This document shows positions 34,804 to 39,090 of a DNA stretch of 64,000 bases, in pieces. Within the stretch, counting starts at the first letter, position 1. Every line of letters begins with the position of its first letter. The translations under genes were made by a program, and so were the position numbers. The notes under the pieces are model-generated. The model had not been told where the DNA came from. It worked only from the letters and a program-made list of their open reading frames with translations, and did no database searches. Source of the stretch: Halobacteriovoraceae bacterium (GTDB lineage: Bacteria > Bdellovibrionota > Bacteriovoracia > Bacteriovoracales > Bacteriovoracaceae); assembly GCA_963719505.1 (NCBI GenBank), contig CAVRCF010000002.1, forward strand, positions 320,001-384,000, written 5' to 3'.

Positions 34804-35772
34804 TTAAACAACAGTAATTCTTGCTGCTTGGCTTCCTGCTCTTCCGACAAAACCAGAAAGGATCAGTCCCATTAAAAGAACGCCAAATAAGACGGCTAAT
34901 GTTGTCGCGATATCATTTTTAATCATATCAGCTTCCTGAACAATTTCCTCTTGAGCTTGTTGTACTTCGTTTCTCAGTCTTGGGATTGTTGTATCTAGTC
35001 TTTGAGAAATTTCATTTATTTCTCTCTCCCAATTTTTTGCCATGCGGTTGACCTGACTTTCAGACAGATCAGAATTTTTTTCAATAATATTTTTTATCTT
35101 ATCTTCAGTTGCCAAGTTAGCTAGTCTGTCTTTAGAAGATTGTAATTGCATTTGAATTCTTTCTAATCCTCTTTCTACTCTGTTGGGATTAATTGCGGCA
35201 GCAATAACAACATCTCTAACAGTCGCTTTAATTTGAACGTACTCACTTCTCACGGCCTCTTTAACCTCAGGAGCTGCTATCTGCTCAATTGAGTTTTCAA
35301 TTTGTCGGTAGCTCAAATCATCCATTCCGATTTGAACATCAAGGTTTTGAAAAGCTGAATAATTTGCTGGAACTAATGAAGCCACTGCGTTGGCTGATTT
35401 TGATGCCATAAAGCTTATTCCATTTGCTATCGAGCTAACAGTAAGAAGAGAAATAATTGACCAAACAACTAATCCACTTGCTACTCCAGAGAAAGATGTC
35501 ACGCTTCCAGATAGCCTTGCAGCTGTATAGGCCCCAACTCCAACGGCGATTGAATAGGATGCGAAAAGCCAAATACCTGTGCTCCAAGTACTCGCTGTAA
35601 GACTAATTCCATTCTCAAAGTCCATAACGGCAATACCCACTACACTTGAGAGAAGAGTAAAGAGAAAGAAAAGCGCGAAAGCGATAAGCGTTCCACCCGC
35701 GATGGCCCCCCATGATATATGAGGCAAGATTAGATTTGACTGTGATTCATTGACGTTGATTTGTGATGACAT
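34804..35772 (-). CDS. Membrane protein with N-terminal TM bundle and coiled-coil periplasmic region
   Basis: ISWGAIAGG, GAYTAARL and GLVVW motifs of a widespread uncharacterised family; C-terminal TM. Confidence 0.75.
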   Translation of the reverse strand: MSSQINVNESQSNLILPHISWGAIAGGTLIAFALFFLFTLLSSVVGIAVMDFENGISLTASTWSTGIWLFASYSIAVGVGAYTAARLSGSVTSFSGVASGLVVWSIISLLTVSSIANGISFMASKSANAVASLVPANYSAFQNLDVQIGMDDLSYRQIENSIEQIAAPEVKEAVRSEYVQIKATVRDVVIAAAINPNRVERGLERIQMQLQSSKDRLANLATEDKIKNIIEKNSDLSESQVNRMAKNWEREINEISQRLDTTIPRLRNEVQQAQEEIVQEADMIKNDIATTLAVLFGVLLMGLILSGFVGRAGSQAARITVV

Positions 35773-35963
35773 TTGTTTCTCCTTTTTCTTAAGTTATAGT
35801 CAATCGAAATTGTAAGGGCTTCACAGACTGAAGTATTTAATGGAAGTTATATAGTTCTTGTTCAAATATACACATGAGACCTTTTTGAGGCTTTGAGGTG
35901 CAGTGTCCTTAAATGCGCTTAATTCCAGATGACAGTAAAGGCTTATTTTGCTAAGGTCGCGCT

Positions 35964-36239
35964 ATGAAGCTTTTTCTGTCCTCTTTATTCATTTTATTAT
36001 GTGTTACAACATCTTTAGGGAGTAAAGCTCATTTTCATGATCACGATTCAATAGAGGTTGAATGCCTCGATTGTCTTTTATCAGCAAGCCATAGTGCTTC
36101 TGATGCTTTAGAGTCACAACCAACAGCTGTTATCGATTCTGTAGTGCTCTACAGTACTGTCTTTACTGCTTTGCCAGTTTCTAGATATCTTTTTGATCCT
36201 TCTCTTTATAGGTACTCTCGAGGACCTCCCATTTCTTAA
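35964..36239 (+). CDS. DUF2946/CruR-like metal-binding leader peptide
   Basis: Signal peptide, HFHDH, CLDC and C-terminal RGPP; first gene of the metal-uptake operon. Confidence 0.7.
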   Translation: MKLFLSSLFILLCVTTSLGSKAHFHDHDSIEVECLDCLLSASHSASDALESQPTAVIDSVVLYSTVFTALPVSRYLFDPSLYRYSRGPPIS

Positions 36240-36301
36240 ATTTAAATACGTTTTTTTACCTTTAAATTTAAAATCCCAAAATTGGGGAAGAGGAGCTCAC
36301 T

Positions 36302-37399
36302 GTGAGATCATTTTATATCATTATTATTTTAGTCGTTTGTTCAAAGCTGTATGGGCAAAGCACCATGATCCAAAATAGAGGAAGTCAGTTTAATCCCGCA
36401 ACAGGATTAAATGCGACAATGCTTATGCGAAAATCAGAAAACGATACCGAGCACGATGGCTTTATGCTCCAAGGGGTGGAGTTACAATTCAACTCTGATG
36501 TCGATGCCTACTTTAGGGCCCAAGTGGTTATTGGTGTTCATCCAGAGATTCATGAACATCATGACGAAGAAGAAGAAGAAGAACATGAAGAAGAAGAAGG
36601 TCATAACCAATACGAGATTCACCCCGAAGAGGCTTATGTCGAGACGATTGCAATTCCTTCGGTAACTCTAAAAGCGGGAAAGTTCCTTTCTCAATTTGGA
36701 AAGTATAATGCCATCCATCTTCACGCACTTCCCTTTGTTTATAGAGGAGTGGTTCAAAAAGAAGTTTTTGGAGGTGAGGGCTTTACGGCGCCAGGTGTCT
36801 CAGCTTCTTTTCTCTTACCAATAGGCTGGTATAGCGAGTTATCTCTAGAGGCGATGCAGTCTGACAATGAGACTTTATTTGTAAAATCATCTAATGCCAC
36901 AGTTTACGTCGCTAAAATGAAAAACCTATGGGACTTAAACGACGAGACCACAATTGAGTGGGGTCTGTCTGGACTCAATTACGAAAGAGCAAGTTTTGGA
37001 GATAATGAAAAAGAGACCTCCAAACTTTTAGGAACCGATCTGACAATTAAATGGCGTCCTACCCAAAATGGAAGAAGCTCTTCTGCAATGTGGTCAACAG
37101 AATTTATTCAAAAGCAAAGGTCTGGAACAGTTAATTCTGAAAATGGTGGAATCACATCATTTATTAGGTATCAAATCAAACAAAGATGGTTCACCCAAGC
37201 CCAATATGAATTTTATGGAATTAATAAATCTGATGATGAGGAAAGTATACAGGCTTACACAGGGCTTATTGGATACATTCCCAGTGAGTTTTCGGCCATT
37301 AGATTACAGTTCGATAAAATAAGTTCACACGAAGATGACTCGAGAATATCTCTTCAGTTTAATATGAGTATTGGTGCCCATCCTGCACATAATTATTAA
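36302..37399 (+). CDS. Zinc-regulated outer-membrane porin/receptor-like protein
   Basis: His/Glu-rich loop, EEAY and LKAGKF motifs, C-terminal IGAHPAHNY. Confidence 0.75.
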   Translation: MRSFYIIIILVVCSKLYGQSTMIQNRGSQFNPATGLNATMLMRKSENDTEHDGFMLQGVELQFNSDVDAYFRAQVVIGVHPEIHEHHDEEEEEEHEEEEGHNQYEIHPEEAYVETIAIPSVTLKAGKFLSQFGKYNAIHLHALPFVYRGVVQKEVFGGEGFTAPGVSASFLLPIGWYSELSLEAMQSDNETLFVKSSNATVYVAKMKNLWDLNDETTIEWGLSGLNYERASFGDNEKETSKLLGTDLTIKWRPTQNGRSSSAMWSTEFIQKQRSGTVNSENGGITSFIRYQIKQRWFTQAQYEFYGINKSDDEESIQAYTGLIGYIPSEFSAIRLQFDKISSHEDDSRISLQFNMSIGAHPAHNY

Positions 37400-37409
37400 G
37401 GGGGAGAGA

Positions 37410-38282
37410 ATGAAAATTTTATTGTTTCTCATCACACTAAACTGCTTTGCAACCTTAAAAGTCGTGACAACAACTTCAAATCTTAAAGCGCTCACTAAGA
37501 CAATTGGTGGAGATAAGGTTGAGGTTCTGGGGCTTTGTAAAGGGGCTCAGGACCCTCACTTCTTAGAAGCAAAACCTAGCTATATTTTTAAACTATCCAA
37601 AGCTGATCTGTTGGTCAGTGTTGGCGCTGACTTAGAGATAGGGTGGCTTCCTCTTATTATCCAAGGCAGTAGGCAGCCTAAATTGAGAGTTGGGCAAAAA
37701 AATCATTTAGTCGCAGCTAATTCCGTAGAGCTTCTTGAGAAGATTGAGGGAAGAGTCTCAAGGGCGCAAGGTGATGTTCATCCCAATGGAAATCCTCACT
37801 TTATGCTCTCTCCTATGGAGTCAATTAACGTGGGAGAGGCTTTGGCGAATAAGCTCTCAACTGTCGATCCCCAAAATGCAACATTTTATAAAGAGAACCT
37901 TGAAGCTTATAGACAATCGATTCTAAAGAAGATGATTGAGTGGAAAAAAAGGGTTCCTAAAAACCAAAAGGTGGTCACTTATCATAGAACGCTATCTTAC
38001 TTTTATAGGGACTTTGAGATAGAGAATATTGATGTTCTTGAGCCAAAGCCTGGTGTTCCACCAAGTGCCTCTCATATTATGAACCTCATAAAGAAAATGA
38101 AAAAAATGAAGACGAATATTATCATTGTAGAAAACTACTTTAACGATGCAGTCGCGAAGAGAATTCAAAGAGAAATACCTAATATCAAAGTTAGGACTGT
38201 TCCTGTAGCCGTGCAAGGCACAGAAGGTATAGAGAACCTTATTGATCTTTACTCATTCTTAGTTAAAAGCGTGGAGAATTAA
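37410..38282 (+). CDS. Zn/Mn ABC transporter substrate-binding protein (ZnuA/TroA family)
   Basis: DPHF, GNPHF, TYH and EPKPGVPP motifs. ATG 37410 follows the SD ggggag. Confidence 0.9.
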   Translation: MKILLFLITLNCFATLKVVTTTSNLKALTKTIGGDKVEVLGLCKGAQDPHFLEAKPSYIFKLSKADLLVSVGADLEIGWLPLIIQGSRQPKLRVGQKNHLVAANSVELLEKIEGRVSRAQGDVHPNGNPHFMLSPMESINVGEALANKLSTVDPQNATFYKENLEAYRQSILKKMIEWKKRVPKNQKVVTYHRTLSYFYRDFEIENIDVLEPKPGVPPSASHIMNLIKKMKKMKTNIIIVENYFNDAVAKRIQREIPNIKVRTVPVAVQGTEGIENLIDLYSFLVKSVEN

Positions 38283-38283
38283 A

Positions 38284-39090
38284 ATGGAAGTCATAAACTT
38301 TCTTCTTGCTCCCTTTTTAATGTGTCTCGTTTTAGTTGGAATTCACTGCTACTTAGGTTTACACGTCTTAAGAAGAGAGGTGATCTTTATTGATCTCTCT
38401 TTAGCTCAAGTGGCAAGCCTTGGAAGTACAGTTGCTCTTTTATTTCATGTTGAGCATCACTCCAGTGGATCCTATTTTCTCTCACTTGGATTTACACTTT
38501 TAGCTGCGCTCTACTTTGCTTGGGCGAAAAAATTTGAGAAGAAAATTTCTCAAGAGGTTTTAATCGCTCTCGTTTATGCTTTTTCATCGGCAGCAGTTGT
38601 CCTTGTGGTCAATATGCTCGCCCACGGAGCTGAACATATTAAAGAAATACTCGTTGGTAAGATTCTTTGGGTTAGTCTTGACGAGGTTAAAGAGACCGCA
38701 CTTATCTATCTAGGCGTCGCTATTGTTCATTACCTTTTTAGAAAGCAGATGTTTAAAGCGACCAACGGTGAAGTTGAGAATCATAAGTTTTGGTGGGATT
38801 TTTTGTTCTATGCCCTTTTTGGAGTGGTTATAACTTCTTCGGTAGGCATTGCTGGAATTCTTCTTGTCTTCTCTTTTCTTGTTGTTCCGGCGTTGATTAG
38901 TATGCAGTTGGTGAAGAGTATCAAAAGCCAGCTTCTTTTGGGTTGGCTAATAGGCAGTCTCTTGTCTTTGGTGGGAATGTTCTTGAGCTATCGTTATGAT
39001 TTACCCTCAGGGGCCATCATCGTCGTGGTTTTCACCTTGGTGCCTTTAGTTGGGTTGATTTTAATGGGGATGATAAAGTTGAGAAAATGA
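38284..39090 (+). CDS. Zn/Mn ABC transporter permease (ZnuB family)
   Basis: LGLHVL…FIDLSLAQ, GILLVFSFLVVPA and DLPSGA motifs. Confidence 0.88.
   Translation: MEVINFLLAPFLMCLVLVGIHCYLGLHVLRREVIFIDLSLAQVASLGSTVALLFHVEHHSSGSYFLSLGFTLLAALYFAWAKKFEKKISQEVLIALVYAFSSAAVVLVVNMLAHGAEHIKEILVGKILWVSLDEVKETALIYLGVAIVHYLFRKQMFKATNGEVENHKFWWDFLFYALFGVVITSSVGIAGILLVFSFLVVPALISMQLVKSIKSQLLLGWLIGSLLSLVGMFLSYRYDLPSGAIIVVVFTLVPLVGLILMGMIKLRK

Follow-up and report, generated by a model that had tools for sequence, protein, structure and literature searches.

To our knowledge, metal-sensing arrest peptides have been established experimentally for copper only, in CruR and CutF. A candidate for a further member of this group, most likely a zinc sensor, is described here: a leader open reading frame (ORF) of 91 amino acids (aa) that heads a porin and metal-importer operon in a Halobacteriovoraceae bacterium. 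It occupies positions 35964..36239 of the forward strand (+) of a 64,000-nucleotide (nt) stretch, referred to below as the window (contig CAVRCF010000002.1, positions 320,001 to 384,000), in an assembly (GCA_963719505.1) of 3.69 Mb with 36.8% G+C and 83.5% completeness. Coordinates below are those of the window unless a locus label precedes them.

CruR (Bp2923) of Bordetella pertussis is described as the prototype of the DUF2946 family (PMC9426467). According to that report, mutants of its RAPP motif lose expression of the downstream TonB-dependent receptor, CxxC mutants are copper-blind, and adding 5 residues to the CxxC-RAPP distance, which is 45, strongly weakens copper regulation; the output is Rho-dependent termination, and the CruR protein itself went undetected (PMC9426467). 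Toeprinting shows CruR stalled with one Pro codon in the ribosomal P site and the other in the A site (PMC12992588). RGPP is accepted as an equivalent of RAPP, and the arrest imposed by RAPP and RGPP is reported to be robust and unrelieved by elongation factor P (Fujiwara et al., PMC12992588). Both motifs are strongly avoided in proteomes, save in the C-terminal region of small secretory products of upstream ORFs (uORFs), and they are enriched in such products upstream of metal genes (PMC12992588). CutF of Rhodobacter capsulatus, described as a DUF2946 member, shows copper-enhanced stalling that melts a stem-loop over the next ribosome-binding site (RBS) (PMC9973294; bioRxiv 10.1101/2025.02.05.636593). 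Some CutF-like members have been proposed to sense metals other than copper, with His-only clusters near nickel/cobalt HupE/UreJ genes (PMC9973294). This kind of leader and the idea of metals beyond copper are, going by these accounts, already published (PMC9973294, PMC12992588). No leader of the CruR/CutF kind before a zinc importer was found in the literature, the gene-context file S1 of PMC9973294 standing outside this statement; zinc goes unmentioned in the main text of the paper on CruR (PMC9426467) and in that of the paper on CutF (PMC9973294), and ZnuA/porin contexts have 0 occurrences in the latter. A Zur-regulon table from Caulobacter lists DUF2946 genes, one of them before czr efflux genes, with no leader function assigned in that source (PMC4176598).

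The leader of the window has a single possible start, the ATG at 35964, because an in-frame TAA lies 9 nt upstream. Its N-terminus resembles a signal peptide (aa 1-19, 35964-36020; judged by eye), with MK, about 15 mostly hydrophobic residues, and SLG|SK. The product reads, in order, MKLFLSSLFILLCVTTSLG|SKA, HFHDH (aa 23-27, 36030-36044), ECLDC (with CLDC at aa 34-37, 36063-36074), a middle part of low conservation, and YSRGPPIS before the stop. RGPP (aa 86-89, 36219-36230) is followed by Ile-Ser and TAA, so it ends 2 residues short of the stop and its Pro-Pro stands at -4/-3 from the C-terminus; 48 residues separate it from the CxxC. The spacer that leads to the porin gene on the same strand is A/T-rich and 62 nt long. 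A sequence-only reading of this DNA had proposed a 91-aa uORF with a signal peptide, HxHxH, CLDC and terminal RGPP-IS, and each of these elements was found where that reading had placed it. The leader also shows all 4 of the 4 features by which CutF-like proteins were filtered: fewer than 150 aa, PP in the last 15 residues, a signal peptide (by eye) and a same-strand gene within 1000 nt (PMC9973294). By analogy with the toeprints of CruR, ApdA and ApdP, the P site at the predicted stall would be occupied by Pro88 (CCT, 36225-36227) and the A site by Pro89 (CCC, 36228-36230) (PMC12992588).

Chance is a poor account of this ORF. The whole assembly has 53,717 stop-to-stop frames with 30 codons or more; R[AG]PP falls within the last 12 residues in 4 of them, and the leader is the sole Met-containing frame of the four, with a hydrophobic N-terminus too. 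Its sequence is poorly conserved: a single-sequence search against 1.84 billion representatives returned no match but itself, and homologues were reached only via the porin neighborhood and a profile search. A scan for related loci with the single porin sequence likewise found no relative, and an alignment-based scan succeeded. Among the 60 relatives searched, 7 other genomes carry a close porin orthologue (E < 1e-60). A uORF of the R-A/G-P-P type precedes the porin gene in 7 of these 8 loci, that is, in the window and in 6 of the 7 others; the remaining locus (L003) has no leader in its 335 nt of upstream DNA. These seven uORFs have 91-109 codons and end in R-A/G-P-P plus 1-3 residues. Their alignment shows 20-25% identity, with M1, H23, C34, R86, P88 and P89 invariant. 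The sequence-only reading had staked its proposal on conservation of the two motifs in orthologues, and the family bears it out: R-x-PP occurs in 7/7 leaders and CxxC in 6/7, the seventh (L008) having CxxH at an equal distance from the motif. The leader profile search found 10 proteins, all of which end in R[AG]PP plus 1-3 C-terminal residues and 9 of which have CxxC; the source names on 4 of the 10 are Halobacteriovoraceae, Halobacteriovorax or Bacteriovorax.

The nearest relative, a metagenomic locus (L110), is the most instructive. Its porin is identical to that of the window at 294 of 365 positions (80%) and its leader at 26 of 91 (29%), and this leader has HAHAH, ECSLC and RGPP at exactly the window positions. 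On the sequence comparison, this is the pattern of a peptide in which the motifs and their geometry alone matter.

This picture extends to a larger collection of loci that have a porin homologue, 78 in number, taken with one genome per species and partly overlapping the first set. Leaving out 6 loci with less than 300 nt of upstream DNA, 72 could be evaluated, and 57 of these have R[AGS]PP in the last 20 residues of an upstream frame (36 RAPP, 19 RGPP and 2 RSPP). The tail after the motif has 1-9 residues over the 57 leaders, 2-3 being commonest. CxxC is found in 40 of the 57, in every case 43-48 residues before the motif Arg, with peaks at 44 and 47-48; the two RSPP leaders (L089 and L090, one labeled Nitrospina sp. 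and one as a Nitrospinota metagenome-assembled genome) have it 43 residues upstream. Going by record titles only, most wider loci belong to Bdellovibrionota or its lineages, and a minority are labeled Nitrospinota/Nitrospina, Binatia, Syntrophobacteraceae, Pseudomonadota and candidate division WWE3. Judging from rarity and conservation together, the leader ORF is not a chance frame and is a real, conserved regulatory leader. No R-x-PP leader precedes the porin homologue in three more distant loci of another family (L009-L011), and the 8 remote porin paralogues (L012-L019) have other genes upstream. In two of the three distant loci, the ORFs before the porin homologue (L009:288-455 and L010:978-1322) share a C-terminal ...GPFT(N/K)FVT(F/L), which may reflect relatedness only, both being of genus g39.

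The relation of these leaders to DUF2946 (PF11162; gathering score 23.7 bits) is visible mostly below the family threshold. Two of the 7 family leaders give sub-threshold matches (17.8 and 15.1 bits). At E <= 0.1, 23 of the 57 wider leaders match, one above the cut-off (24.5 bits) and two just under it (23.5 and 23.6), and each of the 23 matches reaches the last profile position, on RxPP. Pfam-model searches at their own cut-off would miss this clade, since only 1 of 57 leaders exceeds the threshold.

The leader is followed by three genes on the same strand. The first (36302..37399, GTG start) encodes a 365-aa porin-like outer-membrane protein, an assignment that draws on its fold model and on the Pfam matches of its relatives. 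The window porin has no Pfam match of its own, and among 26 relatives 9 match Porin_O_P (PF07396, best 1.9e-6) and 6 match BBP2 (PF07642). Its AlphaFold (AF2) model has 16 strands (predicted local distance difference test, pLDDT, 83; predicted template modeling score, pTM, 0.80), and the best Foldseek matches are 16-stranded porins at template modeling (TM) scores of 0.55-0.64, including OprP at TMq 0.64. A His/Glu-rich run, HPEIHEHHDEEEEEEHEEEEGH (aa 80-108, 36539-36625), forms a disordered loop between strands 3 and 4 in the model, and by porin topology this loop should face outwards. H139 and H141, which lie between strands 5 and 6, are invariant, as is H360; the C-terminus reads GAHPAHNY. 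The second gene (37410..38282) encodes a ZnuA-family periplasmic metal-binding protein (PF01297, E = 2e-46) of 290 aa from the ATG at 37410, and the third and last (38284..39090) a 268-aa ABC-3 family metal permease (PF00950, E = 1.1e-24); the gene after it lies on the opposite strand. The sequence-only reading had predicted a His-rich outer-membrane channel, a solute-binding protein and a permease, in agreement with this porin fold and these family matches. The order leader, porin, ZnuA-family, ABC-3 is kept in 4/4 extended loci. Of the 78 loci in the wider set, 75 have a ZnuA-type match after the porin, with one more doubtful case, and 70 have a permease match. An ATPase gene is absent from the operon, and a frame with Walker-A and LSGGQ on the operon strand occurs in only 1 of 79 loci within the DNA examined. 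A search of the assembly with the AztA model for a cognate ATPase yielded generic ABC ATPases only (best 109 bits, cut-off 220). The whole assembly has one ZnuA gene and one ABC-3 gene.

The binding protein bears most directly on the metal. PsaA we take to be a manganese protein with His/His/Glu/Asp ligands, and the ligand identities of ZnuA are likewise assumed here. Set against PsaA (1psz), the binding protein keeps two His ligands and has His for the PsaA Glu and Val for the PsaA Asp. H50, H124, H130 and H192 are invariant in 66/66 homologues, and the position of the PsaA Asp is V, I or L in 65/66. Zinc is favored over manganese because the site is His-only. The best NCBIfam match of the binding protein is the zinc protein AztC, far below the cut-off, and no equivalog cut-off is reached. 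From its sequence the metal is most likely zinc. The sequence-only reading had offered Zn, Mn, Ni or Co; its non-copper reading is kept, and the choice is narrowed to zinc over manganese by the His-only site. Like the Zur-repressed znuABC importers, the operon combines an ABC-3 permease with a ZnuA-family protein whose site is His-only; unlike them, it has a porin gene and a leader and lacks an ATPase gene.

Folding of the mRNA suggests how a stall could be converted into an output. The minimum-free-energy (MFE) fold of 36219-36325, which begins at the Arg codon and includes the first 24 nt of the porin gene, predicts a long-range helix whose 5' arm (GAG..CCUC, 36220..36228) lies inside the RGPP codons and whose 3' arm (GAGG..CUC, 36290..36298) is the porin Shine-Dalgarno (SD) sequence GAGGAG (36290-36295, before the GTG at 36302) plus CUC. 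The helix encloses two hairpins. One, found both as an inverted repeat and in the fold, is made of A/U only and starts from the stop codon (36236..36271; arms TTAAATTTAAA and TTTAAATTTAA, 11/11 complementary, 14-nt loop); the other is the small hairpin TCCCAAAATTGGGGA (36274..36288; TCCC-AAAATTG-GGGA, 4 pairs). When the first 22 nt are held single-stranded, as under an RGPP-stalled ribosome, the outer helix is lost. The sequence-only reading had drawn attention to a small hairpin abutting the SD. That hairpin is present, but it is weak and leaves the SD uncovered, and it is probably not the switch because it persists in the free and 'stalled' folds alike. The larger predicted feature is the pairing of the RGPP codons with the SD, which points to an output of the CutF type and not to the Rho termination of CruR.

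Support for this pairing comes from the related loci. In L110 the same three-way fold is formed with changed letters (CUCCUG vs CAGGAG). The mean pairing probability between RBS bases and the stall region, compared with a null in which the stall region is shuffled, is 0.43 vs 0.22 (standard deviation (sd) 0.06) across the 7 family loci, a value that 0 of 150 shuffle sets reach. Across 50 wider loci, namely those of the 56 with an assignable start that have a 15-130 nt spacer, it is 0.31 vs 0.16 and lies above the null in 35/50 (Wilcoxon p = 9e-7, an overstated value, as kin are not independent). The Arg codon of the stall motif (36219-36221 in the window) is CGN in 7/7 family loci and 45/50 wider loci; in the long frames of the genome, AGA makes up 57% of Arg codons and CGN only 31%. 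The A-site Pro codon of the window leader, CCC, has 14% usage. The choice of CGN and CCC at the stall motif might have a role in the RNA helix or in the arrest.

The leader mRNA itself may begin very close to its start codon. A promoter-like arrangement (35929..35957, +) consists of a -35 ATGACA (35929-35934), a 17-nt spacer and a -10-like TAAGGT (35952-35957), with 6 nt to the ATG, a string that the sequence-only reading gave with the correct spacing. L110 has ATGACA-17-TATAAA-6-ATG with no SD, that is, the same -35 and spacing as the window and a much better -10. In 6/7 family loci the best -35/-10 pair within 70 nt has its end 6-8 nt upstream of the ATG; an SD-like run is absent before the leader ATG in 5-6 of the 7, and the porin genes have one in 6/7. 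From these comparisons it is plausible that the leader mRNA is leaderless, with its start at or next to the ATG.

Compared with the described systems, the locus comes closest to CruR in its layout. Both have a small first gene of a metal-uptake operon that carries CxxC, and R-A/G-P-P 2-3 residues before the stop. CruR has an export signal, and the window leader has an N-terminus that by eye looks like one; the distance between CxxC and R-A/G-P-P (45 in CruR, 48 in the window, 43-48 in the clade) is tightly constrained in the clade, up to 3 residues away from the CruR value. The expected polarity, in which stalling turns uptake on and metal turns it off, would be shared as well. The window leader differs from CruR in having RGPP instead of RAPP, a His cluster before the CxxC, and no Pfam match. 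A TonB-independent porin and a ZnuA/ABC-3 importer stand downstream in place of a TonB-dependent receptor, and the probable metal is zinc here and copper in CruR. The spacer is 62 nt, A/T-rich and predicted to mask the RBS, whereas that of CruR is 162 bp, G+C-rich and used for Rho-dependent termination; and the start is probably leaderless, whereas transcription of CruR starts 45 bp upstream of the start codon. With CutF the leader has in common a nascent peptide that appears to be exported, a metal motif, a C-terminal Pro-Pro stall site, and a proposed melting, by stalling, of mRNA structure that shields the RBS of the next gene. On the other hand, CutF controls a detoxifying oxidase and its stalling is raised by copper, and an uptake operon is expected to respond oppositely. 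ApdA, ApdP and their relatives, and SecM, are likewise small secretory proteins with an R-A/G-P-P core close to the C-terminal end, encoded ahead of the gene that they regulate, and ApdA and ApdP arrest with the last two codons of the motif in the P and A sites (PMC12992588). Those peptides monitor Sec/YidC and are without a conserved Cys/His set, unlike the leader, which has metal ligands and an importer operon.

Taken together, the leader is on balance probably a cis-acting, metal-sensing arrest peptide of the CruR/CutF type, with zinc as its most likely metal and unmasking of the porin RBS as its output. The arrest, the metal, the direction of the response and the place of sensing are what we infer from the observed motifs, which are conserved and held at fixed distances, from the neighboring genes and from the pairing that the folds predict. 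In outline, an mRNA that probably begins at or beside the ATG would be translated, the N-terminal signal sequence would target the nascent leader for export, and the ribosome would arrest on the Arg-Gly-Pro-Pro motif, its P site holding Pro88 and its A site Pro89. The stalled ribosome would cover the RGPP codons and the stop codon, which in the free mRNA are predicted to pair with the porin SD. During the stall the SD would be open and the porin translated; if translation of the ZnuA-type and permease genes depends on that of the porin, and only then, they would be turned on as well. When the metal is present, the His cluster and the CxxC, 48 to about 60 residues from the peptidyl-transferase center and just out of the ribosome/translocon, would bind it, and the resulting fold or pull would release the arrest. 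Termination would follow, the helix would re-form, and uptake would be shut down. For an uptake operon this direction, which is that of CruR, would be the useful logic. At the stall 88 residues have been made; with about 35 in the tunnel and about 20 across the translocon, by our own rough estimate, aa 23-27 and 34-37 would sit at the periplasmic mouth, and periplasmic sensing fits what has been proposed for CutF.

Several observations weigh against this account. CxxC is a classical copper(I) motif. The window leader has no match to Pfam DUF2946 even at E <= 10, so the profile search that the sequence-only reading had suggested came out negative for this peptide; on present sequence evidence it is a fringe DUF2946 relative that probably works like the family, and not a Pfam member. 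Its CxxC-motif spacing of 48 is 3 above the 45 of CruR, and 17 of the 57 wider leaders are without CxxC, some having Cys/His variants near that place. The uORF is absent in 15 of the 72 evaluable loci; one of these has a leader with CTVC that ends in QAPP (L034), and another ends in NSPP (L055). Since the 15 include close relatives (L026, L027, L030 and L032), the operon can dispense with the leader gene. At the promoter, the -10 of the window is poor (3/6), a strict sigma-70 scan of 35600-36500 finds no promoter, and the AAGG in TAAGGT, 7 nt before the ATG, could be a weak SD; the leaderless start foreseen by the sequence-only reading is thus favored by L110 and the 6/7 loci and disfavored by the window's own promoter. 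As for the RNA, taken one by one, only 2 of the 7 family loci (L004 and L005) pass 0.05, pairing is absent in L007, and only 12 of the 50 wider loci reach <= 0.05. Native and swapped duplexes of stall arm and RBS are not separated (-8.99 vs -8.53 kcal/mol, sd 2.89), and since native pairs are no stronger, much of the complementarity is the generic CCUCC:GGAGG fit of Pro-Pro codons to any SD. The case for pairing between the RGPP codons and the SD, a prediction from folding, is therefore moderate. Finally, CruR has been proposed to sense copper without its signal peptide.

If the sensor is as proposed, its output could still be that of CruR, with the stalled ribosome blocking Rho, release leading to termination before the porin gene, and RBS masking playing a minor part. 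CruR, the only characterized uptake-side member, is described as working in this way (PMC9426467); the genome contains a Rho RNA-binding domain, and the last 150 nt of the leader contain more C than G (36 vs 24). Yet the spacer is short (62 nt; 37-83 nt in the family) and A/T-rich where that of CruR is 162 bp and G+C-rich, the pairing of stall site and RBS exceeds shuffles and is kept with changed letters in L110, and the Rho match is spread over two frames and interrupted by 2 TAA, which makes its integrity doubtful. Unmasking of the RBS is accordingly the more likely output, and Rho-dependent termination, its main rival, is unlikely. The match to the Rho domain (G000:C3:365447-365667, two overlapping frames) reflects either a broken rho or an assembly indel, and the latter would call for caution with other frames of the genome. 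The metal could also be another one, with the mechanism unchanged: copper, given the CxxC that is the copper motif of CruR and CutF; nickel or cobalt, given the His cluster and the His-only CutF-like clusters that adjoin HupE/UreJ nickel/cobalt genes (PMC9973294); or manganese or iron, given that the importer has a ZnuA-family protein whose best solved sequence matches are Mn-binding PsaA entries and whose NCBIfam matches are all far below their cut-offs. These options sit poorly with a His in place of the third PsaA ligand and no Asp at the fourth, the His being invariant in 66/66 homologues (PsaA and ZnuA ligands as assumed above), with a zinc protein, AztC, as the best NCBIfam match, and with the one leader (L008) that has CxxH for CxxC at equal spacing. 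A metal other than zinc is a minority possibility that deserves to be kept in mind.

Two further readings do without metal sensing by a nascent chain. The leader might be a secretion monitor like SecM, ApdA and ApdP, in which pull by Sec alone frees the arrest and export capacity is tuned with no metal sensed. Its signal-peptide-like N-terminus and RGPP tail are those of Sec/YidC-linked arrest peptides (PMC12992588), and all three downstream products are exported or membrane proteins. Such a monitor has no role for invariant His and Cys residues at a fixed distance of 43-48 residues, the downstream genes serve metal uptake and not sec/yidC functions, and the sub-threshold matches are to the metal-linked DUF2946; we regard it as very unlikely. 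Alternatively, the product could be a stable, small periplasmic metal-binding protein, a chaperone or scavenger for the importer, with R-x-PP incidental or otherwise used. An export signal, a His cluster, a Cys pair and a place in the importer operon would suit such a protein. A leader identity of 29% beside a porin identity of 80% in L110, and conservation confined to motifs and spacing, are unlike a folded binding protein; moreover, the avoidance of RAPP/RGPP in proteomes is described as strong everywhere but toward the C-terminal end of small secretory uORF products (PMC12992588), and CruR itself went undetected as a protein (PMC9426467). A free metal-binding protein would come as a considerable surprise. 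The proposal of the sequence-only reading, that a CruR-type arrest leader with CxxC and R(A/G)PP has been moved to another metal and another transporter, thus gains comparative support as the reading preferred here.

Other features of the locus and of its relatives are of separate interest. Upstream of the leader, a divergent gene (34804-35772, -) has a product of 322 aa whose N-terminal half is hydrophobic and whose C-terminal half is charged and rich in Glu, Gln and Lys; none of its family matches rises above noise, and a 190-nt intergenic region is common to this gene and the leader promoter. Within the leader ORF, two terminator-like hairpins with weak T tails (36054-36068 and 36139-36154, +) are taken as chance, with shuffles giving 0.5 +/- 0.7. 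In one genome (G020), a second small ORF of 119 codons (L023:4940-5299, -) lies directly after the permease of the orthologous operon. It has a hydrophobic N-terminus, GHHLSH, a single Cys and the end SRAPPYLVS, and it heads genes of 580 and 431 codons and then a 98-aa ORF with a Cys-rich tail. By its sequence it is a second arrest-type leader, of another sequence family, at the same locus. Five of the remote porin paralogues (L012, L013, L014, L015 and L018, in genomes G016, G032, G012, G006 and G018; 24-30% identity) have no leader; the genes before them encode a His-rich protein (about 200 aa) and a lipoprotein-like one (about 210 aa). Four of these five genomes have a Fur-family gene no more than about 3 kb away from the paralogue, which suggests a repressor-controlled sister system.

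Whether the operon is also under a repressor of the Fur/Zur family was considered at the level of the genome. No match to this family (PF01475) is present in this 83.5%-complete assembly, and one is found in only 18 of the 41 genomes of the family. A Fur-family match is missing from 6 of the 8 genomes that carry a close porin orthologue; a leader is present in 7 of these 8. No specific link between absence of Fur and presence of the operon emerged: among the genomes covered by both searches, Fur-family matches occur in 2/8 with the operon vs 12/27 without it. No shared Zur-like palindrome was found by eye upstream of the 7 family leaders, where individual loci have different short palindromes.

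The clade of leaders is widespread, occurring in 57 of 72 loci, and it is a good new example of an idea that is published in general form rather than a new principle. A zinc version, if true, would extend that principle to a metal whose uptake is otherwise explained by Zur. With 91 codons and a 62-nt spacer, the leader is a compact and easily mutated test system, and the 43-48-residue ruler, kept in leaders that are otherwise unalignable, gives a handle on how a bound ligand signals to the peptidyl-transferase center. As a tentative extension, possible though not probable, marine predatory bacteria may control zinc uptake mainly via a nascent-chain sensor and not via Zur, with a leaderless mRNA, an exported leader whose His cluster and Cys pair would arrive at the periplasmic mouth of the translocon just as the ribosome arrests at RGPP, direct reading of periplasmic zinc, and unmasking of the RBS to make a dedicated zinc porin and importer. 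If true, this would be the first zinc-responsive arrest peptide and a case of zinc homeostasis free of transcription factors.

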